Positions 1,873-40,546 of a stretch of DNA of 60,481 bases are shown here, piece after piece. The notes beneath the pieces were generated by a model. That model searched no databases. It saw only the letters and a program-made list of their open reading frames with translations, and was not told where the DNA came from. The stretch spans positions 1-60,481 of the forward strand of contig JAHELW010000003.1 of the NCBI GenBank assembly GCA_024643985.1, given 5' to 3'. Within the stretch, counting starts at the first letter, position 1, and each line of letters opens with the position of its first letter. The position numbers and the translations under genes are program-made. This DNA comes from Myxococcales bacterium. GTDB lineage: Bacteria; Myxococcota_A; Polyangia; Polyangiales; Houyiibacteriaceae.

Positions 1873-4800
1873 CTAGAGCCATTTTTGGATGTGCATGCCT
1901 AGGGCGGCGGGTCTCATGGGGGAGCGGTCTTTCGGGCGCACTCGGAATCTCAGCTCGTGACCGCCGCTTGCCTGCACCGCGAAGGCGCCCCGCCAGGTGC
2001 TGCGGTCGTGGTTGCCCTCGCCCTCGAAGGGAACCACGAGCCGGGTGGACAGATCCTGCATGCGACTGCCGAACGTCACGACTGCCTCGACGTCGAGCTC
2101 CCTTGCATCGAGCCCAGGGTGCTGAAGGCTGACCTCCGCGGACACGTTGGTGCCTACGACGACCTCGTCGCCGCTCAAGCCGCCAAAGCGGACGCTTTCC
2201 ATCGCGATGTTGTTCCAGTGGGTGCGCATGTCCTCCGCCAGATCCGCGAGTGCAAACAGCGGACGGTAGTTGCTGTCGCGAAGCGCGACCGCGTCTTGCA
2301 TGGCCGGCTCGTAAAACATGTCCGCATAGTTCGTCACCATTCGGCGAGCCGAAAAGCGAGGGATGATGCTCGACATGCTCGCCTTCATGCGTTCCACCCA
2401 CGCCACGGGCACGTCTTCCTGGTTCCGGTCGTGGTACATGGGAAGAATCTCACCCTCGAGGAGCGCCATGGTGGCCGCGCGGTCGTAAGCGCTTGGATCG
2501 TGGATGGTTGCGGGCGGGAGATCGATCACCCAGCCGTTGTCGCCCCGGTAGCCCTCGAGCCACCACCCATCGTCGACGCTCAGATTCAAGCACCCGTTCA
2601 TGGCCGCCTTCATTCCCGACGTCCCGCTCGCCTCGAGCGGCCGAGTGGGCGTGTTGAGCCAGACGTCGCAGCCCGCGACCATTCGGCGGGCCTCGTCGAT
2701 CGAGTAGTCCTCGAGGAAGATGACCCTGCCGGCGAGATCGGGATGTTTGGCCGCCTTGTAAACCCGCTGCAGCAGGGCTTGGCCGTGGCCGTCCGCCGGG
2801 TGTGCCTTCCCGGCGTAGACCATCATGGCGCCGGGGTTGCTCCCGAGGAGCTTGGCGAGCCTCTCGGGGTCGCTGAGGAGCAGATCCGCGCGCTTGTACG
2901 GTGCGAAGCGACGTGCGAATCCAATCAAGAGACGATCTTCGTCGAGCTGGTCGAGGACGTCCCGCAGCAACGAAAGATCTTCCCGCCGGCGACTCCAGGT
3001 CTGCGTCAGGTGTTCCTTGAGCCACTCGATGAAGTCGGCGCGAAGCTCGCGGTGGATCGACCAGATCTCACTGGGATCATGCTCGCGCAGCCACTCCCAC
3101 TGAAAGCGATCTTCGATGCTATTGCGCCAATCGTGGCCCATCTGCCGCTCGAAGAGCCTTTGCCAGCGCGGGGCCACCCAAGTCGAGACGTGCACGCCGT
3201 TGGTGATGTGGGTGCTTGGAACGTCGTCGGAATCATCGAGCTCCGGATAGAACTGCCGGAACATGTGGCGAGCAACCTCACCGTGCTTCGCGCTGACTCC
3301 GTTGATGCGCTCCGAGTTCCTGACGGCAAGCGCGGTCGTCCCAAACTCGTTCGGCGAGCCGTTCGGCGTGTGTCCCATCGCCATGAGACGCGGCCAGTCC
3401 ATTCGCAGCACCCGTTCGAAGCGTGCGAGATACGGTCGCACCATTTCCTCTGGAAAATGGTCGTGACCGGCGGCGACCGGCGTGTGCGTCGTGAAAACCG
3501 TCGTGTTGCGGATGTACTCCAGCGCTTCTTGTGACCGGAGGCCATGCCTTTGAATCAAGTGCGCGGCCCTTGCGATCAGCAAGAATGCGCTGTGGCCTTC
3601 GTTCATGTGAAAAACGTCCGGGTCGATGTCGAGCTCCGTCAACATCTGGTAGCCACCGAGGCCGAGGATAATCTCCTGTCGCAAACGGTGGGCCAAGTCG
3701 CCAGCGTAGAGGCGATTCGTAATCGCGCGATCTTCCGGTCGGTTTTCGGGGAGGTTGGTATCCAACAGAAACAGCGGCACCCGCCCGACCTGGAGCTGCC
3801 ATGCGGAAACCTGGACCTGACCTGTCGGCAGGGGCACCGTCACTTTGAGCGGCGCGTACTGCCCCGCCATCACCGGCCGAAAGGGTGGGCTTCCAAAGTC
3901 GTTGGTGTCGCCGAGGTCCTCCTGTCGACCGTCACGATCGATCATCTGGTGGAAGTAACCGTCGTGGTAGGCAAGCCCAACGGCGCACAATGGGATCCCC
4001 AAGTCGCTCGCGGCCTTGAGATGATCGCCTGCGAGGATTCCCAGGCCGCCCGAGTAGAGCTTCAGAAACCCGGCGATGCCGAACTCCATGCAGAAGTACG
4101 CAATCCTCGGATCTTCAACCTTGGTTCCGTCGACCATCTCAGCATGAAAGCGCCTGACGGCCTCGACGTACTCCTCGTCGATCGCCAAATCCATCAAGCG
4201 GTCGGGCTTGACTTGGTCGAGCAGCGCGTGTGGGTTCTCTTTGAGCCTGAACCAGAGCTCTGGGTCGATCCGCTTGAAGAGCGAAGCGACCTCGGGGTGC
4301 CATCGCCACCACAGGTTGGAAGCAATGTCCTGGAGCGGCTGGAGCTCGTCCGGCATCGCGTTCGCGACCGTGAACGTACGGGTGTACGGCGCCGCTACCT
4401 CTCCCTCCTTGGCGGGCGGCTTCACGAACAGGCCGAAGACTCCAGAGCTGTCGCTGCTGGGTGCCGCCGAGGGCACGCTCAGCCGTTCCATCGGGAGCTC
4501 TTTCCGCCGCGCCGCACCGGCAGCGAGGGCGCGGTGGTGGGCGTCCTCGTAGTGCTCCATGAAGTTCGACCAGTCGGTCAGCTCGGCCGTGCGCAGCGAG
4601 GCCGCGCGCAGTGAGTCCCGGCGGTCGGGAGTCAGGTCGATGAATTCGAGCAACGCCTTCTTCAGCGAGTTGCTGACCTCTTCGAAGGGCACGCCTTCAC
4701 GCGCGAGGACGCGGACTCCAGTGCTGTTGCCATCGCCCTGCGCCGCGACCCACCGACCGAAGCCCGCTCGATCGGTGGTGATCGCGGGAACGCCGAAAGC

Positions 4801-6126
4801 CACGGCCTCGAGCGGGGTGTAGCCCCACGGTTCGTAGAACGAGGGAAACACGCCGAGGTCCGCGCCCGGAAGCAGGTCCCAGTACTTGTGCCGGATCAGC
4901 GGGTCCGTTCCGTCCAGATAGATGGGAACGTGTACGACGTGGACCTTCGCGCCAGGGCGGTTGTCGATGCCGAGCGCGTTCAGCTGGTTCGTAATCGGGT
5001 CGTTGGGTTCGTCGACAAGGTCGTGAGTACATCGCAGCGGCGACGTCGACCCTGCGCCGTAAGCGCGATCCCAGAGCTCACGCTTCGGTTCGGCATGTCC
5101 CGCGGGAAGCATCGCGTACGCGATGACTCTCTTACCATCGCGCGCGGCCAGATCCTCCGCGAGGCTCGACGCCGCGTCGAGATAGACATCGACGCCCTTG
5201 TTCACGTACTCGTAGCGGCCTGCCAGAGCGAACACGAGAGTGTTTTCTCGATCGTACTGGTCCCCCGTCGTCAGCTCCGCGAGCTTGAAGAGCTCCTCGC
5301 GGGCGCTCTGCCGCTGCTCCTCCGTGACGGGCTTCGCCCCGAAACCGTTCGGTAGCACGACGTCCGGCCTTCTGCCGAGGAGGTGCTCGCACTCGAGTGC
5401 CGTGATTTCGCTCACCGTCGTGAACACGTCGGCCTCTCGGGCGGCGACGGTTTCCATGGAATGCTTCGAGGAGACCTCGAGCTCTTTGGCTGCCGATTCG
5501 GGGTCGATGCTCTCGAGAGATCGGTAAAAATGCGGATCGGCGCGACGGCCTGCAAGCGACCGCCCGAGCATGGTGGCGTGCGTCGTGAAGACCGTACCGA
5601 TGTCAGGCGCCGCCGTCTGCAGATGCAGGATCGCGCCCGCCGACATCCACTCGTGGGCCTGCACGAGCGCGGTCTGCCGCGCCGGAAGAAGAAACCGATC
5701 GCGAATGAGCTCGATGATCACGCCCGCGCCGTACGCAAACAGGACCGGGTCGTAGTAGTCCCATGCACCGAAGAGCGAATCGAGCGCATACCGCTCCCAG
5801 TACGTGCCGAGGATTTCGTCTTTTCGCGAGTAGAGGTTGGAGTGGTTGATCAGCAGACAGCGGGGCTCGCCTGGAACCAGCCAACGGCCCATTTGTACAT
5901 TCACCTCGTGATCGCGGAGCGCGAGCTCGAGGTCGGGGTTCCAGACGTCTGACCGAAACTCCGGTGCCACGCCTTCCGTACGAGGAACGTCAGGGCCGAT
6001 CGCGATGTAGCCGTCCTCGCCGTGCCGCTGCTGAACCTCCGGAACGCGGCTTGCCAACACGGTGTGGATTCCACCCACCATGTTGCAGACCTCCCAAGAG
6101 ATCTCGAAGAACACCGACCTGCTCAT
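1873..6126 (-). CDS. glgP: Fusion of GT3-type glycogen synthase (N-terminal) and GT35 alpha-glucan phosphorylase (C-terminal), about 1417 aa
   Basis: N-terminal FEISWEVCNMVGGIHTV, AHEWM, VFTTHATMLGR, FPSFYEPWGYTPLE (GT3). C-terminal YFCMEFG, YSGGLGILAGD, HMNEGH, FARRFAPYKRA, EASGTSGMK (PLP lysine). The start at 6126 overlaps the upstream stop (ATGA). Confidence 0.9.
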   Translation of the reverse strand: MSRSVFFEISWEVCNMVGGIHTVLASRVPEVQQRHGEDGYIAIGPDVPRTEGVAPEFRSDVWNPDLELALRDHEVNVQMGRWLVPGEPRCLLINHSNLYSRKDEILGTYWERYALDSLFGAWDYYDPVLFAYGAGVIIELIRDRFLLPARQTALVQAHEWMSAGAILHLQTAAPDIGTVFTTHATMLGRSLAGRRADPHFYRSLESIDPESAAKELEVSSKHSMETVAAREADVFTTVSEITALECEHLLGRRPDVVLPNGFGAKPVTEEQRQSAREELFKLAELTTGDQYDRENTLVFALAGRYEYVNKGVDVYLDAASSLAEDLAARDGKRVIAYAMLPAGHAEPKRELWDRAYGAGSTSPLRCTHDLVDEPNDPITNQLNALGIDNRPGAKVHVVHVPIYLDGTDPLIRHKYWDLLPGADLGVFPSFYEPWGYTPLEAVAFGVPAITTDRAGFGRWVAAQGDGNSTGVRVLAREGVPFEEVSNSLKKALLEFIDLTPDRRDSLRAASLRTAELTDWSNFMEHYEDAHHRALAAGAARRKELPMERLSVPSAAPSSDSSGVFGLFVKPPAKEGEVAAPYTRTFTVANAMPDELQPLQDIASNLWWRWHPEVASLFKRIDPELWFRLKENPHALLDQVKPDRLMDLAIDEEYVEAVRRFHAEMVDGTKVEDPRIAYFCMEFGIAGFLKLYSGGLGILAGDHLKAASDLGIPLCAVGLAYHDGYFHQMIDRDGRQEDLGDTNDFGSPPFRPVMAGQYAPLKVTVPLPTGQVQVSAWQLQVGRVPLFLLDTNLPENRPEDRAITNRLYAGDLAHRLRQEIILGLGGYQMLTELDIDPDVFHMNEGHSAFLLIARAAHLIQRHGLRSQEALEYIRNTTVFTTHTPVAAGHDHFPEEMVRPYLARFERVLRMDWPRLMAMGHTPNGSPNEFGTTALAVRNSERINGVSAKHGEVARHMFRQFYPELDDSDDVPSTHITNGVHVSTWVAPRWQRLFERQMGHDWRNSIEDRFQWEWLREHDPSEIWSIHRELRADFIEWLKEHLTQTWSRRREDLSLLRDVLDQLDEDRLLIGFARRFAPYKRADLLLSDPERLAKLLGSNPGAMMVYAGKAHPADGHGQALLQRVYKAAKHPDLAGRVIFLEDYSIDEARRMVAGCDVWLNTPTRPLEASGTSGMKAAMNGCLNLSVDDGWWLEGYRGDNGWVIDLPPATIHDPSAYDRAATMALLEGEILPMYHDRNQEDVPVAWVERMKASMSSIIPRFSARRMVTNYADMFYEPAMQDAVALRDSNYRPLFALADLAEDMRTHWNNIAMESVRFGGLSGDEVVVGTNVSAEVSLQHPGLDARELDVEAVVTFGSRMQDLSTRLVVPFEGEGNHDRSTWRGAFAVQASGGHELRFRVRPKDRSPMRPAALGMHIQKWL

Positions 6127-34970: not shown

Positions 34971-35993
34971 CTAAAACGCCGGGACAGCGAGCACCCCGCC
35001 GCAGGCCGTTTCATTCATGTAGATCCCGTCGGCGCTCTGGCCCTTCGGGGAATTCGCGCCCGAGGTCGCCCCGATCACCAGATCCGCATCGGTATACGCG
35101 AGGAACACGCACATCTCTTGTCCGCCGAGCCCGTATTCCAGTCGCCGATCCGTGTTGTTCGCGTAGCCGCACTCGACCCGGAGCATCGGCGCCCCGTTCG
35201 AGCTGACCGGCGGATTGATGGTGGTCCCGAGCGGCTCGCCCACCGAGTTTCGAAGCTCGAAGATCGTGCGTTCCTCGTCGGCGTCGTCGACGAAGCTGAG
35301 CCGGAAGTAGTTCCCCCACTCGTGGTAGTGGGCGAGGACGTAATAGACGTTGTAGTTGGCAGGCTTGCCAAGCAAGTTTTGAAACTGCTCGCCGAGGTCA
35401 CAGGTCATCGCGAAGCGGGATTCCGCCTGCGGCTCGATGTCGAGCGCGGTATTCGTAAAGCTGATCGGGCGAAGTCGAATCTCGACGTCTTCTTCGGCTA
35501 CGGTTTGGATGTCGAAGCTCAGCGCCGTCTGTAGCGGGCTCGGCGAGATGTTCAGCAGATGAACCCCGCCGACGATTTTGTGCCGCGGCGGGATCTCGAG
35601 CACCGCGCCCTCTTGAAACGCTTGAAGCTCCCCAAGCGCCTGCGTCGACTGCGCGAAAAACACACCGCCGGCCAGCGCGGACGACACGTCGCCAAAGCCG
35701 CGTTCGTCACAGTCCCAGGTGCCGTCCGGGCCCGGATACGTATCCTCGGGCACGAAATACCAGTTCGAGTGGTGCCAGGCGCCGTCGTTCCGCTGGCGGA
35801 CCTTCGAGACGTAGAGGGGCTCTTCGTTCCCAAGCGTCCAGCTCTGGCACACGCCGCTGATCTCCGCGCCGGAGTCGATCGCGAGCGCCTCGAACGTATG
35901 CGTCATCGTCGGATCGATTTCGGGCGGAGCCGTCTCCGTGGCGCAGGCCGTGAGGCTCAGTCCGAGGACGACGAGGTACAATGTACGGCCCAT
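34971..35993 (-). CDS. Lipoprotein with type II copper monooxygenase (PHM/DBH-like) motifs
   Basis: Lipobox LTAC; HH (WHHS), H (VHLLN), HxH (HYH) and M (EMC). Confidence 0.65.
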   Translation of the reverse strand: MGRTLYLVVLGLSLTACATETAPPEIDPTMTHTFEALAIDSGAEISGVCQSWTLGNEEPLYVSKVRQRNDGAWHHSNWYFVPEDTYPGPDGTWDCDERGFGDVSSALAGGVFFAQSTQALGELQAFQEGAVLEIPPRHKIVGGVHLLNISPSPLQTALSFDIQTVAEEDVEIRLRPISFTNTALDIEPQAESRFAMTCDLGEQFQNLLGKPANYNVYYVLAHYHEWGNYFRLSFVDDADEERTIFELRNSVGEPLGTTINPPVSSNGAPMLRVECGYANNTDRRLEYGLGGQEMCVFLAYTDADLVIGATSGANSPKGQSADGIYMNETACGGVLAVPAF

Positions 35994-36059
35994 CGCACGG
36001 GAGGATCGCCGCAATTGCGACGCCTGGCAAGCCATGGGTCGAAGCATCACGAGCCAACT

Positions 36060-36105
36060 TCGGAGCGGGTGAAGAGATTCGAACTCTCGACCTCGACCTT
36101 GGGAA
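36060..36105 (-). repeat. att site (displaced 3' half of tRNA-Gly)
   Basis: TCGGAGCGGGTGAAGAGATTCGAACTCTCGACCTCGACCTTGGGAA, identical to 39154-39199. Confidence 0.92.
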
Positions 36106-36195
36106 TACTCTCTCAGCCTAGAACACCATTCGGGAAATCCAACAACATCAACCACATGAAGTCCTGCGGCGTTGCGTGCCGTCCCGAGGTGTCCT

Positions 36196-36220
36196 GTGGA
36201 AAGTGGAAGAATTCGTGGAA
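36196..36220 (+). repeat. Putative integrase arm-type sites (left)
   Basis: GTGGAA at 36196, 36203 and 36215. AAAGTGGAA-N6-GTGGAA recurs at 39064-39084. Confidence 0.55.
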
Positions 36221-36288
36221 TATTTGGCTTCGACGTTCAGAGGGTCGAAGCCTGACGCTTAGCCCAACTGCGGTGCGGTTGGCGCCCC

Positions 36289-36597
36289 TCAGGGCACGGG
36301 CGGATCGCTACCGCGTGCTCGACTCCAGACGGCAGCGATGAGAACCTCCCTCGCTTCGCGGTTGACCGAATAGAAGACTGCGTAGGGTGTGCCTTCGATC
36401 AACAACCGCCGCACGCCAGGCAACTGGATATCGTCGCATGGTCGCCCGAGACCTGGCATCCGGGAGATGTGGTCACTTGCTGCGCTGAATGCTTCTTTGA
36501 AGGTCGCTCGGGCAGCCGGCCGGTTCGCAGCCCACCAAGCCTCGAGCTCGCGCACTTGCCACTCCGCTTCGGGCGAAATGCGGACGCGGAAGCTCAC
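36289..36597 (-). CDS. Type II toxin, ParE/RelE superfamily
   Basis: 102 aa; RVRISPEAE...MPGLGR...GVRRLL...YAVFY...IAAVWS. GTGA overlap with the antitoxin. Confidence 0.85.
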   Translation of the reverse strand: MSFRVRISPEAEWQVRELEAWWAANRPAARATFKEAFSAASDHISRMPGLGRPCDDIQLPGVRRLLIEGTPYAVFYSVNREAREVLIAAVWSRARGSDPPVP

Positions 36598-36812
36598 AGC
36601 TCTTTCATGAAATCTTCAATCGGTCGGCTCTTGCCCGCTTCACCTTGCGCCAGGCCACGCCGCACGGATGCCCGAAGTCTTTCGAGGTCGTCTTCGCTTA
36701 GGCTCTCGAAGCCATCCTCGGCGCGAACGGCGTTCAGAACAGTACGCACTGCGTCGAGCTCGTCGTCGGCCAGTTCATCGATCAATGCATGAATGTCGGA
36801 CCGGGTTCCCAT
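36594..36812 (-). CDS. Cognate antitoxin (ParD-like, acidic)
   Basis: 72 aa, immediately upstream of the toxin; ends in RRGLAQGEAGKSRPIEDFMKEL, a typical antitoxin tail. Confidence 0.75.
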   Translation of the reverse strand: MGTRSDIHALIDELADDELDAVRTVLNAVRAEDGFESLSEDDLERLRASVRRGLAQGEAGKSRPIEDFMKEL

Positions 36813-36898
36813 TTCGCTCAGCTTAAGCCCGGTGGGACTGCTCGTCCAGGCTGCGGAACAGATCTGACAGCTCTCTCATTTCCACCCTGGGTCGGGCT

Positions 36899-37078
36899 TG
36901 AAGCACACTGGCTCGTCCTGCTCTTTTCTGACACACGCCGCATCTTCTTGCGCAAGAGTGGTTCGGTCTGACCCACCCTGCCGCAAAATGCGTCATCACG
37001 AGGCAAAGGGGGTCGCTTCGCTTCATATTTGCGCAGTAAGCTCCAGAATTCTTCATCGTGCGTCAAAAGGAACCGGAC
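36899..37078. repeat. 10-bp-phased degenerate array 1, (TG-NNN-CA-NNN) x18
   Basis: Counted by eye over 18 units: G at position 2 in 16, C at position 6 in 16, T at position 1 in 12, A at position 7 in 12. Confidence 0.75.
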
Positions 37079-37092
37079 TTTGTTCGGGCAAG

Positions 37093-37119
37093 GTGGAGTT
37101 TTGTTTAACAAAACTGCAC
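37093..37119. repeat. AT-rich palindrome
   Basis: AGTTTTGTT-T-AACAAAACT (37097-37115), extendable with GTG/CAC after one mismatch. Confidence 0.75.
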
Positions 37120-37162
37120 GGCTCTCGCGTCGGGTCTTCGCCCCAAGCTCGGCGGTGAGGGG

Positions 37163-37436
37163 CGCGCTCAACGCCTTCGGCTTATTCGCGCGAGGCGGCG
37201 GCCTAGAGCCCGGTCTGACGCGTGTCCTCGTGTGCGCCGGCCCGCGACGGCAGGTTTCGAATCGGAGAGTCCAATGGCGAGAAACGCTCCACCGCTTCGC
37301 AGAACTCAGGACGACCCGCAACGGCATCTGCCACCATCACGGTCGGCTGGTAGGTCGCATGGATCTGCCAGTGCGGGAGAAAGAAGTTCTTGCCCTTGTT
37401 TGGTCCGCTGCGAATAAGCCGAAGGCGTTGAGCGCG
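37163..37436. repeat. Perfect 27-bp inverted repeat enclosing 220 bp
   Basis: CGCGCTCAACGCCTTCGGCTTATTCGC (37163-37189) and GCGAATAAGCCGAAGGCGTTGAGCGCG (37410-37436). Confidence 0.9.
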
Positions 37437-37488
37437 GCAAGCGGGGATTGGGACATCTTCGATGTCCTACAATCCCACATCTTGAAAA

Positions 37489-37618
37489 TGTCGCACTTCG
37501 CTCTGAACTGACTTCTCTTGTCGCCTTCTGCATCGTTTTGGTTCTTCGTGAAGCACAATGCGTCGTTTCACTCCAAGAAGCTCCAAAGTGCGTCACTTCG
37601 TCGCAGAAAACGCCAAGA
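37489..37618. repeat. 10-bp-phased degenerate array 2, (TG-NNN-CR-NNN) x13
   Basis: 13 units: TG at positions 1-2 in 8, G at position 2 in 11, C at position 6 in 11. Same register as array 1. Confidence 0.7.
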
Positions 37619-37766
37619 GGTGAGAGCTGGTGACAGCCTCGCGTGGCACTTCTTGTCGCTGGATGACGCACTCGCGTTCCAAGCACTTCCTGCTCGCGCA
37701 ACTTTTCGGGGTGCAAAGCCGATAACAGGGGATGAGCATGAACGCGATTCCCAATCACGAGCTTCG

Positions 37767-38222
37767 ATGACGGCGTCATGGGACGACGATCCATGGCTCG
37801 ACTGTCGCAGCGCTGGAGCCTTTCTCGGGCTAACGCCCTCCGGTGTCCGATCGCTCGTCAACCGTGGTGTGTTGTTTCGTCGCTCCACCCTCGACCGCTG
37901 GATTATCGATGGCTGCCGGCGCTATGCTCCTCAGCGGTACGCAACGTCCGGGACGGGAGGAGCGCATGAGCAAATCTCGGTATCCGGGAATCGAACGCCT
38001 GTCGTCGGGTCGCTATCGAGTGAGAGTGACTTGGAACGATCCGAAGACGGGCAAGCGAAAGGATCAGAAGAAAGTGATTGCCGCCACCAGCATGGCCGAA
38101 GCGAGCTCCCAAAGGGAGTTGCTTCGTACCCGCTTGCTGACGGGCGGCACGACCCCAGAGCACCGTCTTCGCCTTGGCGAATACGCGAGCTCGTGGATGC
38201 GTGGGAAGATTCCCACTCTTAA
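37767..38222 (+). CDS. Excisionase-like HTH (HTH_17/Xis type), apparently lacking the wing; possibly inactive
   Basis: WLDCRSAGAFLGLTPSGVRSLVNRG-VLFRRSTLDRWI lies immediately upstream of the integrase, and its 3' part overlaps the integrase in another frame. Confidence 0.55.
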   Translation: MTASWDDDPWLDCRSAGAFLGLTPSGVRSLVNRGVLFRRSTLDRWIIDGCRRYAPQRYATSGTGGAHEQISVSGNRTPVVGSLSSESDLERSEDGQAKGSEESDCRHQHGRSELPKGVASYPLADGRHDPRAPSSPWRIRELVDAWEDSHS

Positions 38223-39150
38223 GCCCTCGACGCGGGACAAGTACGCGGTGGTCCTGGACCACCATATCCTTCCCGCCTTGGGGGATTACTACGTCGACGC
38301 CATCACGCCGCAAGACGTGCTCCGGTGGCGTGATGCCCAGCATGCCAAGCCCAGCACCGTCAATTCGCGGCTGAGGGTGCTTCGTACGCTCCTCCGGGAC
38401 GCGCAGGCACAGCTCGGGCTGCCCCGGGACCCCTGCGCTCGCGTGAGAACGCTGCCGGAGGAGCCCACGGTCGGAAACCGGCTCAAGCCCGAACAGCTGA
38501 GGCAGGTCCTCGGCCATCTCCAGGAGCATGAGCGACAATGGTATCCGTTGTTTCTCACGATGGCGCTCACCGGCGCTCGCTTCGGCGAGGTCTCGGCCCT
38601 TCAGTGGTCGGACATCGACGAAGACGCCGGAGTGATCTGGATCCGGCGTGCCCAGTCGCAGGGGCGTGTCGGCACGACCAAAACCGGGAAGGTCCGAGAC
38701 GTTCCGCTCCCGCTGCCGCTCATGGCAGTGCTCAAACAGCATCGACAGCGGCTCGTTCGAGACCAGGCACCAGGGCTCTCCGAGGGATTGGTCTTCCCAA
38801 GCCGCGTCGGAACCTACCTACGGAACTCCTCGCTCCGGAAGCCCCTGGGGCGAGCTCTCGAGGCAGCCGGCGTGTCCGAGCGGTTTACCGTTCACGGTTT
38901 CCGCCGAACCTGGAACAACCTGCTCCGCCAAGTGGCGTCGGGCGCGATCACGCGATCGATGATCGGCCACGAGACGGAGGAGATGTTCCTTCACTACTCG
39001 CACATCGAGCGCGATGAGAAGCAAAGCGCCGTCGAACGAGCGCTCGCGCTGGTCGACGGTCCCAAAGTGGAACATCGTGTGGAAGGTTCCCCGCTTGGGG
39101 ACGCCGGCCGGAATGCAGACAGTTCAGAAACCACCCGTAACGACAAGTGA
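37966..39150 (+). CDS. int: Tyrosine recombinase / phage-type integrase
   Basis: N-terminal arm-binding region (GRYRVRV) and core-binding region (STRDKY...HILP). Catalytic R (TGARFGE), K (TKT), HxxR (HGFR), H (IGH) and Y (HYSH) are all present. GGAGG RBS. Confidence 0.93.
   Translation: MSKSRYPGIERLSSGRYRVRVTWNDPKTGKRKDQKKVIAATSMAEASSQRELLRTRLLTGGTTPEHRLRLGEYASSWMRGKIPTLKPSTRDKYAVVLDHHILPALGDYYVDAITPQDVLRWRDAQHAKPSTVNSRLRVLRTLLRDAQAQLGLPRDPCARVRTLPEEPTVGNRLKPEQLRQVLGHLQEHERQWYPLFLTMALTGARFGEVSALQWSDIDEDAGVIWIRRAQSQGRVGTTKTGKVRDVPLPLPLMAVLKQHRQRLVRDQAPGLSEGLVFPSRVGTYLRNSSLRKPLGRALEAAGVSERFTVHGFRRTWNNLLRQVASGAITRSMIGHETEEMFLHYSHIERDEKQSAVERALALVDGPKVEHRVEGSPLGDAGRNADSSETTRNDK
39064..39084 (+). 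repeat. Putative integrase arm-type sites (right)
   Basis: AAAGTGGAACATCGTGTGGAA, with the same 12-bp spacing as the left copy. Confidence 0.55.
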
Positions 39151-39157
39151 TTCTCGG

Positions 39158-39229
39158 AGCGGGTGAAGAGATTCGAACTCTCGACCTCGACCTTGGGAAG
39201 GTCGCACTCTACCACTGAGTTACACCCGC
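39158..39229 (-). tRNA. tRNA-Gly (anticodon CCC), CCA not encoded
   Basis: GCGGGTG acceptor stem pairs with CACCCGC; D-loop AGTGGTA; anticodon arm CGACC-TTCCCAA-GGTCG; T-loop GTTCGAATC; followed by TCCG. Confidence 0.95.
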
Positions 39230-39270
39230 AAAGAGGATGGAGAACTAGCCTTGCTGCCCGAACGCGTCAA

Positions 39271-39298
39271 GCCTGGACCCTTTGGCGAGGGTCCAGGC
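39271..39298. terminator. Stem-loop between the SPFH gene and tRNA-Gly
   Basis: GCCTGGACCCT-TTGGCG-AGGGTCCAGGC; only a weak U-tract. Confidence 0.45.
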
Positions 39299-39311
39299 GT
39301 CGTGCGCGCGT

Positions 39312-40130
39312 TTAGCGGGTGTGGACGAGGGGTAAGCCGTTCGGACCGACGGGGATGTAGACCGTCGTGTGGTTTGGGGCGTCGGCCATCGTCTTTTGCG
39401 CCTCGATCGCCTCGTGCTGCAGGTAGTTGGGCGTCAGCGTTGCGTTGATGATCTTCTGCGCTTCGGCGATTCCCTTGGCCTCTTCGATGCGAATCTCGGC
39501 ATCCCGCCGTGCGATTTCGCGCTGGGTTTCCTTTTCCTCGAGGAGCTGCCTCGCAGCGAGCTTCTTTTCGACGGCCTGCGAGACGACCGGCGGATAGTCG
39601 ATGTTGCCCACCGCGAGCCGGACGACCTCGAACGGAGCGCTCTCGAGGTACTCGCCGAGTGAGGCCTCGATGGTTGCTGCGATCTCGTCGCGCTCTGCTT
39701 TCAGCTCTCGGCTCGAATACTGCTGGACGGACTGCCGCACGATGGTCCGGAGCGGCTCCCTGACGTATCGGTCGTACCAGTGCGGCCCGCCGAACGTCTC
39801 GACCACCGATTGCACCTGACCGTCTTCCGCTTTCATCACCGCGTGAACGCTGAAGGCGACGTTGAGATCGTCTTTGACCAGGATCGCGAACTGCTCGGTG
39901 TACGTGGCCGGCCGAGTGTCGATGTGGATGACTCGGTTCCGGAACGCGCTCACGCCGTAGTTGCCTGGACCGCGGACGACTCCGCGAAAGCCGCCTTCTC
40001 CGAGCACGCGGGGATCTTCGAAGACGTAGCCTTCGTGCCCGGCAGGGGTGTGCGGGTTCGTGCAGCCCGTCACCGCGAGGGGGAGGGCCGCCAACAGGGC
40101 GGCGACGAGGATGAATGGGGTGCTGCGCAT
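39312..40130 (-). CDS. SPFH / band 7 / prohibitin-domain lipoprotein
   Basis: Lipobox VTGC; PAGHEG, NIDYPPVVSQAVEKK, RIEEAKGIAEAQKII, YIPVGPNGLPL; GGAGG RBS. Confidence 0.85.
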   Translation of the reverse strand: MRSTPFILVAALLAALPLAVTGCTNPHTPAGHEGYVFEDPRVLGEGGFRGVVRGPGNYGVSAFRNRVIHIDTRPATYTEQFAILVKDDLNVAFSVHAVMKAEDGQVQSVVETFGGPHWYDRYVREPLRTIVRQSVQQYSSRELKAERDEIAATIEASLGEYLESAPFEVVRLAVGNIDYPPVVSQAVEKKLAARQLLEEKETQREIARRDAEIRIEEAKGIAEAQKIINATLTPNYLQHEAIEAQKTMADAPNHTTVYIPVGPNGLPLVHTR

Positions 40131-40140
40131 GACTGCCTCC

Positions 40141-40250
40141 TTTATTTTCGGATATTTCGTGTATTTATATAATATAATATAACAAAGCATAATGCAGCAC
40201 AGAGTGGTATTTTCGTATTGTTTCGTGTATAAAAACACCAAAAGGGGGTT
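40141..40250. promoter_or_regulatory. Very AT-rich divergent promoter region with direct repeats
   Basis: TATTTTCGGATATTTCGTGTAT (40143-40164) resembles TATTTTCGTATTGTTTCGTGTAT (40208-40230); an ATATA x3 tract lies between them. Confidence 0.6.
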
Positions 40251-40252
40251 CC

Positions 40253-40546
40253 ATGACGGACGAGTTTCGGCGAATCAGCCTGATGATTCGGGAGGATCAG
40301 CACCAGCGGCTGTTGGACCTCGGCGTGAACATGAGCGCCCTGATCCGCAGCCTCATCGACGACCATCTGAGCGAATCGAAGATCACGCTCGCGGTGCCCG
40401 AGGAGACGGCGCACCTCTATCGGCAGGTGGTCTCCGACACCGGCAGCACCGACGCGGAGGTCGAGCCGTATCTTCGAGCCGCCCTGAAAACCATGCTCAA
40501 AGACCGAATCGCCCAGCTGCAGACGCTTCACCGAAGCATCGAGTAG
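40253..40546 (+). CDS. Small ribbon-helix-helix-like DNA-binding protein
   Basis: RRISLMIREDQHQRL...NMSALIRSLIDDHL beta-alpha-alpha pattern. Confidence 0.6.
   Translation: MTDEFRRISLMIREDQHQRLLDLGVNMSALIRSLIDDHLSESKITLAVPEETAHLYRQVVSDTGSTDAEVEPYLRAALKTMLKDRIAQLQTLHRSIE

Follow-up and report, generated by a model that had tools for sequence, protein, structure and literature searches.

We analyzed a window of 60,481 nt, the whole of contig JAHELW010000003.1 in an assembly (GCA_024643985.1; 3.52 Mb, 288 contigs, 80.55% complete) of an uncultured sediment myxobacterium of the Polyangiales type. The window carries a 3.1-kb island at a tRNA-Gly(CCC) gene, which we take, with a probability of about 0.6, to be a reduced mobilizable island without a relaxase of its own, of the kind represented by the mobilizable genomic islands (MGIs) and the iOriT elements, with a core of cis-acting sites of the origin-of-transfer (oriT) type. 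We are quite confident, from its homologues, that the core derives from oriT DNA, and we lean slightly against the view that the copy in the window can still move. This copy is probably on its way from an element that hitchhikes by means of its oriT to a remnant. An earlier note on this DNA had offered two readings, a minimal element relying on cis signals or a reduced remnant, and our results point to a mixture of both. The reading by cis signals is supported by the conservation of the core, its homology to DNA upstream of operons with a traJ/nikA-like gene and a MOBP relaxase gene, and its layout, which resembles that of RP4. The remnant reading is supported by lesions, namely the missing relaxase operon, a 12-aa deletion in the excisionase-like gene (xis), and a 30-nt deletion in the right-hand part of the core. 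The family of small tRNA-integrating mobilizable islands to which we assign it is abundant in one genus of uncultured Polyangiales-type myxobacteria. Our comparison set for this genus comprised 55 genomes, of which 39 are at least 90% complete.

A conserved non-coding core and its counterparts in relaxase-bearing islands

The island is bounded by a 46-nt direct repeat, the two copies of which are 100% identical and spaced 3094 nt from start to start (Table 1). The repeats enclose 3094 bp with four genes and 954 nt of gene-free DNA. Neither the list of open reading frames (ORFs) nor scans of the 3.1 kb against Pfam, NCBIfam, and PHROGs revealed genes for replication, a relaxase, a coupling protein, a mating pore, other conjugation functions, or capsids, in agreement with what had been noted from the sequence before. 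The gene-free stretch (36813-37766) makes up 30% of the 3140 nt of the element. Three long ORFs in it matched neither a Pfam family above cut-off nor a PHROG, and it contains a perfect 27-bp inverted repeat (37163-37189 and 37410-37436, 220 nt apart) as well as a palindrome of 13+13 nt (37093-37119). The earlier description of this part as ordered DNA without a convincing gene thus holds.

We found matches to the core in 45 of the 55 genus genomes, with up to 25 matches per genome. Its left piece (36898-37192) is 70-84% identical to many copies, and its right piece of 80 nt (37405-37484) is 93-99% identical across genomes. The latter is more conserved than the integrase, which is 79-89% identical at the protein level in the same genomes. 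An exact 23-mer of the 27-mer was present in at least 121 stretches of genome_contigs; among the titled matches listed (n = 80), 72 were metagenome-assembled genomes labeled Polyangiales, Myxococcales, Myxococcota, or "delta proteobacterium". Parts of the core also recur within the source genome itself, on a second contig (C208) by another integrase at a tRNA-Leu(AAG) gene. On these comparisons, the core is best read as conserved cis-acting DNA rather than as a gene desert or a group of RNA genes.

The anatomy of the core became apparent from 119 units excised around exact copies of the 23-mer, of which 74 are of the type found on the left in the window, 32 of the type found on the right, and 13 others. 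Left and right types share a common plan that consists of GGGCAAG, 8 nt, an inverted repeat, and the invariant 27-mer, and GGGCAAG is invariant in at least 95% of the copies of each type. In the left type, the inverted repeat reads AGTTTTG..CAAAACT and its loop occurs in three forms. One pair of hairpin 1 changes from T-A to G-C (16 versus 9 of 26 aligned left copies) and is broken in 1 copy. A second, longer hairpin is present in the left type only; its stems differ between subfamilies yet still pair. When the hairpin-2 segment was folded with DNA energy parameters and compared with shuffled sequences, z was below -2 in 30 of 69 distinct segments (median -1.65). These values come from folding each copy separately in place of a consensus fold, which, on a plain MAFFT alignment of 26 left units, recovered hairpin 1 and missed the variable middle. 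The lengths of the units (116-124 nt) differ by non-multiples of three, which means that they are not coding.

In the window, the left unit carries GGGCAAGG (37086-37093); the nick is predicted to fall on the minus strand, opposite 37088/37089. Hairpin 1 (the palindrome at 37093-37119), hairpin 2 (about 37116-37160), and the first copy of the 27-mer follow. The inverted right unit consists of the second copy of the 27-mer, a hairpin (37444-37476), and a remainder of the nick motif (37477-37484). Alignment to five copies showed that 30 nt which abut the predicted nick elsewhere are missing after 37484. This deletion ends within 1 nt of the predicted nick and leaves TTTTCAAG, compared to GGGCA(A/G)G in 12 of the 12 other copies compared. 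On its nick-distal side (37485-37691), the right unit is flanked by DNA homologous to the flank of other right-type copies, which likely contains accessory-protein and regulatory sites, and the corresponding stretch beside the left unit (36898-37074) is a possible accessory-protein or promoter region. Taken together, the core is best read from its sequence as two inverted oriT-type units with accessory repeats and the control region of xis and the integrase gene (int). We also considered an ORF at 37029-37511 as a gene. It has a coding-like GC pattern, but it spans both units and matches no family, and the lengths of the units vary by non-multiples of three; it was therefore rejected.

We read the core as oriT-type cis sites because of its counterparts in larger sibling islands, where a TraJ/NikA-like gene and a relaxase gene follow directly downstream of the left-type unit, as is the case in RP4. 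In full-size islands, a small gene with a GTG start codon about 60 nt downstream of the left-type unit encodes a NikA-like ribbon-helix-helix protein (PF21983; its match to TraJ PRK13877, at 1e-8, falls short of the curated cut-off). Next comes the gene for a 504-aa relaxase (PF03432, PF22863), which scores 279.9 bits against NF041893, the "TraI/MobA(P) family conjugative relaxase" (cut-off 250). About 25 nt past the 27-mer and ahead of the GTG-start gene, 44 left-type copies have a promoter-like TCGACA/TAGACA-N17-TACTAT/TATGCT. A nikA-like gene was located within the 300-400-nt flank of 36 of the 74 left-type units and of none of the 32 right-type units, and all eight loci of the 504-aa relaxase family (in four near-complete genomes) have a left-type unit just upstream. 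By homology and position, the left unit in the window is thus putatively related to the oriT of relaxase-encoding elements. Right-type units adjoin xis-int in islands that have a second pair of TraJ-like and relaxase genes at their far end; this second type of relaxase has 415 aa and reaches 305.6 bits against NF041893. Overall, 37 of the 55 genus genomes contain relaxases of the island family; a single genome has up to 15 matches, and many of the matches are broken. A conserved gene of about 100 aa without an assigned family precedes the second-type pair and is also found at the start of contig C208.

At tRNA-Gly(CCC), further islands occur in which int, xis, and the core are retained. They range from about 4.4 kb upward and some are arranged in tandem. 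Their cargo differs: an island of about 4.4 kb carries a Fic gene, another a homologue of the presumed antitoxin of the window copy together with Fic and lipid genes (MCRA, WS/DGAT), and further ones carry TPR and unassigned genes or, in tandem arrays with three att copies, penicillin amidase and other genes. We found no phage or conjugation-pore genes in these relatives. They are thus small cargo islands that keep the core, and not the larger prophage or integrative conjugative element (ICE), with a core that is not conserved, of which the earlier note had considered that the island might be a deletion product. Between the convergent 27-mers, 10 distinct other loci hold 23 to 4027 nt of unrelated DNA. 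The window copy and one relative are distinguished by a single 3.8-kb insertion in the latter, which carries the MCRA and WS/DGAT genes and lies between window positions 37377 and 37383.

Two side observations concern these arrangements. The slots at loci L037, L045, and L039/L033 often hold a single small gene (for a membrane protein or a small acidic protein) and in this respect look like cassette sites. In the tandem arrays L025 and L026, the att core (L025) or the arm next to attL (L026) occurs three times at tRNA-Gly(CCC), and the unrelated cargo between the copies comprises genes for penicillin amidase, a trypsin-like protease, an insertion sequence with an rve transposase, and a second integrase.

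Based on these data, we propose the following model. The tyrosine integrase of the island would recombine the 46-bp core, a copy of the 3' part of tRNA-Gly(CCC), with GTGGAA arm sites on both sides. In each unit, a nick would be placed between CTTG and CCC, on the strand predicted to be cut, which is the complement of GGGCAAG. The window copy would have lost its relaxase operon, with the slot between the units left empty, so that transfer would be possible only if a relaxase supplied in trans by a sibling island nicked the left unit, which appears intact, and the strand was exported through a conjugative pore of some kind. Meanwhile, the ParE pair would stabilize the island.

Comparison with RP4 and with known mobilizable elements

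The plasmid relaxases closest to the sibling relaxase are the TraI proteins of IncP-1 plasmids (30.6% identity over 94% of the query). We therefore compared the units with the traJ-traK intergenic region of RP4 (IncP-1), taken from record CP152305.1. Towards traJ, the oriT of RP4 presents CCGGGCAGGATAG, an inverted repeat, CTTATTCGC and GCTCAACG, and then traJ. Towards their TraJ-like gene, the island units present (C/G)GGGCAAG(A/G)T.., an inverted repeat, and, within the 27-mer, the two words CTTATTCGC and GCTCAACG in the opposite order. Both systems thus share the order of a nick region, an inverted repeat about 8 nt away, a gene for a ribbon-helix-helix accessory protein, and a TraI/MobA(P) relaxase gene. 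GGGCA.G..T stands ahead of the inverted repeat in both, the distance between GGG and the repeat is 8 nt in RP4 and in the left and right types alike, and in either case the two shared words are placed after the repeat and ahead of the accessory gene. In addition, the sibling relaxases reach the curated cut-off of NF041893. In contrast, the relaxases are only about 30% identical, the nick motif has CCTG in RP4 and CTTG in the island units, and the left-type unit has a second hairpin. Moreover, the island module sits on an integrating island without Tra2/Trb pore genes nearby, whereas RP4 is a plasmid.

For MOBP relaxases, the nick consensus is given in PMC3772185, in the part of that article relevant here, as (C/T)ATCCTG(C/T), with an inverted repeat immediately proximal. 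Read on the other strand, the right-type consensus CATCTTGC agrees with it in 7 of 8 positions; the right unit of the window has lost bases 3' of the predicted nick. An accessory gene and a MOBP relaxase gene adjoin the unit in the siblings, and the window copy is without such genes.

Among known elements, the MGIs, for example MGIVflInd1 of Vibrio, come close to the island. As far as they are described in the pertinent part of PMC5704250, they likewise encode a tyrosine integrase and an excisionase of their own and sit between att repeats at a fixed chromosomal site. Their oriT is related to one found on a relaxase-encoding element, genes for a relaxase or a pore are absent, and toxin-antitoxin systems are frequent among their cargo. 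The MGIs listed there measure 16.5-22.3 kb compared to 3.1 kb for the island, and their helper (an ICE of the SXT/R391 family) and their transfer were demonstrated by experiment, whereas for the island both are hypothetical. The island also differs in that its putative oriT is RP4/MOBP-like and occurs twice, in inverted orientation and with damage to one copy, and in that its excisionase gene is partly deleted. The iOriT elements, according to the portion of the survey in bioRxiv 10.64898/2026.01.13.699239 that defines them, have an oriT like those of relaxase-bearing elements and no relaxase or mating-pore genes. This definition applies equally to the island, and oriT was inferred in the survey as it was here, from a conserved region next to relaxases. 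The same source covers six nosocomial species, compared to uncultured sediment myxobacteria in our case, and reports integrative elements above 4 kb with one exception of 2 kb. It describes iOriTs as genetically unrelated to their putative helpers beyond oriT; the island, in contrast, shares integrase, xis, and backbone DNA with relaxase-bearing siblings. These full-size siblings, with integrase, xis, oriT, TraJ-like gene, relaxase, cargo, and tRNA targets, fit the canonical integrative and mobilizable elements (IMEs; iMOB class) as characterized in the corresponding part of PMC5704250. The window copy has neither relaxase nor accessory gene and is thus not a canonical IME.

The kind of element as such is therefore already known from MGIs and iOriTs. 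What is new here is the clade, the size of 3.1 kb, the paired inverted units around a cargo slot, and the scarcity of pore genes in a genus rich in relaxase islands. A search of the literature on IMEs, oriT and relaxases, the RP4 nick, and Myxococcota returned no description of the island family, which does not prove that none exists. Read as oriT-type sites, the puzzling 30% of non-coding DNA would have a function, and the recently recognized class of islands carrying only an oriT would extend to uncultured sediment myxobacteria and down to 3.1 kb, which lies under the size range published for integrative hitchhikers. The family would further offer a natural series of stages in the paring down to cis sites, from full relaxase islands through islands in which cargo replaces the relaxase to a near-empty copy. 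Finally, the contrast between relaxases in 37 of 55 genomes and the near absence of pore and coupling genes bears on how DNA moves in this clade, provided that it is not an artefact of binning.

Mobility of the window copy and rival explanations

Several findings weigh against the island being an oriT-bearing mobilizable element. As regards the motifs, CTTATTCGC and GCTCAACG stand in the opposite order in RP4 and the island units, the left-type variants match the MOBP nick consensus less well than the right type, and the island motif departs from the ATCCTG core required by RP4 TraI and VirD2 in vitro according to the relevant passage of PMC3772185. The words shared by the left unit of the window and the RP4 oriT do not exceed chance, as 323 of 2000 shuffles reach the same level. 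For a relaxase-linked sibling unit, the count of shared 9-mers was reached by 14 of 3000 mononucleotide shuffles and an 11-mer by 91 of 3000, which is only moderately unusual. Since these word statistics are modest, the case for oriT rests mainly on position, architecture, and the nick-type motif. A simple oriT model also does not explain why two inverted units flank a cargo slot. As regards the machinery, tblastn, PF03432, and protein searches revealed no relaxase or NikA-like gene in the source genome, at its completeness of 80.55%. In the genus, VirB4 (PF03135) was found in 1 of 55 genomes only, on a 4.2-kb contig that cannot be placed in any element, and the type IV coupling protein families PF02534 and PF12696 in none of the 55. 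Excision was assessed by comparing positions 35500-39700 with the assembled contigs of four public runs, and no joint across 36105/39154, as expected for a circle or an empty site, was present in these contigs, which break at the repeated modules. Two runs from other studies covered element-like sequence with little or no cover of the left flank, which is not evidence of excision. One run contained two low-depth joints between the 27-mers ("skips 217/218") with sides of only 28-30 nt, which we did not interpret.

A genus rich in relaxases and poor in pores implies either helpers that were not binned or a use of relaxases without a classical pore. Under the second option, the MOBP relaxase and oriT of this genus might drive rolling-circle copying of excised islands and their intragenomic spread, or DNA export by a novel route. 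It draws on the presence of relaxase islands and their oriT-only derivatives at a dozen or more copies per genome in a genus where genes for type IV secretion systems and coupling proteins are all but undetectable; even so, we consider it improbable. If it applied, the inverted pairs of oriT might mark a slot serviced by the relaxase for the exchange of cargo, and the window copy would be a slot caught empty.

With regard to the reduced mobilizable island that we favor, the integrase of the window copy is apparently functional. It matches PF00589 (1.1e-19), PF14659 (3.3e-12), and PF22022 (6.7e-07) as well as phrog_1 (2e-70), and it is equal in length to five close homologues. The catalytic residues R205, H310, R313, H335, and Y344 are all in place, as had been pointed out in the earlier note. 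Against the five homologues, dN/dS is 0.16-0.21, a range that indicates purifying selection on the family. About 120 nt beside attL are conserved in six related islands (blastn identities of 74-85%), with the similarity ending just after the last GTGGAA, and on the other side 39064-39084 is 76% identical to 36200-36220. The GTGGAA repeats on both sides are likely arm-type binding sites of the integrase in the two attP arms. The block upstream of xis-int is 91% identical over 45 nt to the second island of the source genome and 91-94% identical in close relatives; a consensus scan of this block (37692-37766) found no sigma-70-like site. The excisionase-like gene, in turn, is damaged: compared to five of five close relatives, 36 nt (12 residues) are deleted in frame in the wing after the helix-turn-helix. 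The xis genes of three relatives match HTH_17 (PF12728) at 1.5e-6 to 7e-5, one above the cut-off of 27 bits and the other two below it (26.4 and 23.4 bits), and the window copy gave no HTH_17 match at E<=0.1. Of the Xis-like helix-turn-helix gene reported earlier, the excisionase homologue thus stands, with its wing shortened and its HTH_17 score lost. As a side observation, the xis frame is free of stops up to 38222 and overlaps the integrase by about 250 nt in another frame, an open overlap that is also kept in three relatives (163-aa ORFs).

The lesions invite the alternative that the island is an inert remnant, that is, a deletion derivative of the same origin which can now neither excise nor transfer and is kept only because it is young, harmless beside its tRNA gene, and held by ParE addiction. 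In its favor are the three losses together (the relaxase operon, the xis wing with its HTH_17 score, and the 30 nt of the right unit), the source genome in which no relaxase was found, sibling copies with broken integrases (G005, G009, and the second island on C208), and the relative separated from the window copy by just one 3.8-kb indel. However, the window copy retains an integrase of full length whose catalytic residues are all present and whose family is under purifying selection, attL still matches the tRNA copy in 46 of 46 positions, no damage is apparent in the left unit or in either set of arm repeats, the deletion in xis preserves the reading frame, and a sibling island could supply the excisionase. 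We therefore regard a fully inert remnant as rather unlikely.

Three further explanations address the core itself and fit less well. The units might be genes for small structured RNAs, which would regulate xis/int, the toxin pair, or the downstream ribbon-helix-helix gene, and not DNA sites. The compensatory changes in hairpin 1 and the folding of hairpin 2 would be as compatible with RNA as with single-stranded DNA, a T-G pair in one copy is workable only on the plus strand, and 44 copies have the promoter-like site just downstream of the unit. We still consider this very improbable, as Rfam (E<=1, 35500-39700) matched only the tRNA, scans of the window copy for promoters and terminators gave 0 promoter-like sites and terminator-like sites at chance level, conservation peaks in the unpaired GGGCAAG and the 27-mer and not in the stems, and position, 8-nt spacing, and motif correspond to a relaxase nick region that is tied to relaxase operons at 8/8 loci. 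A perfect 27-bp inverted repeat around 220 bp next to a tyrosine recombinase gene, in a convergent arrangement that recurs at other loci, could also mark the ends of an invertible DNA switch flipped by that recombinase. However, the spacer varies from 23 to 4027 nt and holds unrelated cargo, and many 27-mers stand alone without a partner, always within a unit. Furthermore, loci L033 and L039, which share their spacer, have it oriented alike with respect to the left and right units (locus strand allowed for), and the contigs of the four runs showed no orientation variants, although contigs cannot exclude a minority form. A switch is thus less credible still. We give least credence to a minimal phage satellite whose packaging by a helper phage would depend on cis signals in the core, although an integrase at a tRNA gene, its good score against the phage integrase family phrog_1, the small size, and the large non-coding part would all agree with one. 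The 23-mer has no match in 2.9 million viral contigs, the sole integrase relative among these is 28% identical, and neither the window copy nor four larger relatives carry capsid, terminase, primase, or repressor genes, while the core is tied to relaxase operons. The satellite of the earlier note, in the phage sense of the word, hence finds no support.

Target site, toxin pair, and further islands

The coordinates of the island features are compiled in Table 1. The right copy of the direct repeat consists of the 3' 44 nt of the tRNA-Gly(CCC) gene plus 2 nt and extends past the anticodon (39195-39197). This bears out the att duplication through the anticodon that had been described before; the tRNA gene itself matches the Rfam tRNA family with 69.5 bits.

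Table 1 Features of the 3.1-kb island and its target site (positions in the window)
Feature	Position	Strand	Remarks
attL	36060..36105		left copy of the exact 46-bp repeat; copies the 3' part of tRNA-Gly
Conserved attP arm beside attL	36106..36226		closes with three GTGGAA repeats (36196, 36203, 36215)
ParE-family toxin gene, 102 aa	36289..36597	-	PF05016 2.2e-12; phrog_2455 6e-11
Small partner ORF, 72 aa, presumed antitoxin	36594..36812	-	its stop overlaps the toxin start
Conserved non-coding region, nick-distal side of left unit	36898..37074	+	TGCGTCA repeats at 36989 and 37059
Left oriT-type unit (M1)	37075..37192	+	appears intact; matches family consensus
Spacer between inverted 27-mers	37190..37409		220 nt; empty or degenerate cargo slot
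Right oriT-type unit (M2), inverted, truncated	37410..37484	-	
Repeat-rich non-coding stretch, right unit to xis	37485..37691		GCGTCA / CACTTCG-type motifs
Conserved block upstream of xis-int	37692..37766	+	presumed promoter / 5' region
Excisionase-like (HTH_17 family) gene	37767..38222	+	12-aa in-frame deletion in wing; overlaps int
Tyrosine integrase, 394 aa, intact	37966..39150	+	GGGAGGAG ribosome-binding site 5 nt before ATG
Second GTGGAA pair	39064..39084		within the 3' end of int; 39067 and 39079
attR	39154..39199		right copy of the 46-bp repeat, within the tRNA gene
tRNA-Gly(CCC)	39156..39229	-	integration target, intact despite insertion

The toxin has the ParE fold, with a PF05016 score above the cut-off. 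Its 72-aa partner matches no family in Pfam, NCBIfam, or PHROGs, including the known antitoxin families (ParD, ribbon-helix-helix, PhD), and is presumed to be the antitoxin from its position only. In one relative, a homologue of this partner adjoins a Fic gene. Of the ParE/RelE-type toxin-antitoxin pair proposed earlier, we can thus retain the ParE toxin with an overlapping ORF upstream, but not an antitoxin family for the partner.

We also inspected other islands of the source genome. The one on contig C208 (1-3700) lies beside tRNA-Leu(AAG) (3569-3657, minus strand) and carries a toxin-antitoxin pair (1303-1871) unlike that of the window copy, a single left-type unit that points the other way (27-mer at 1900-1926), the conserved block, and an xis-like gene (2269-2592). 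Its integrase gene is broken up into two ORFs (2448-2765 and 2790-3629), and a search for an attL on the contig, which starts inside or near the island, found none. On contig C176 (about 4760-5060), a C-terminal integrase fragment, 43% identical to residues 283-393 of the window integrase, adjoins tRNA-Gly(GCC) and, by its sequence, looks like a decayed remnant of another island.

In marine-sediment runs of other studies, summed contig depth at four modules of the window (36064-36204, 37051-37191, 37333-37473, and 37615-37755) was tens to hundreds of times that of neighboring bins, which fits many copies in such communities. Downstream of the tRNA gene, a short patch of low GC content (40050-40350; 0.52 versus about 0.64 around it) lies between two divergent ORFs.

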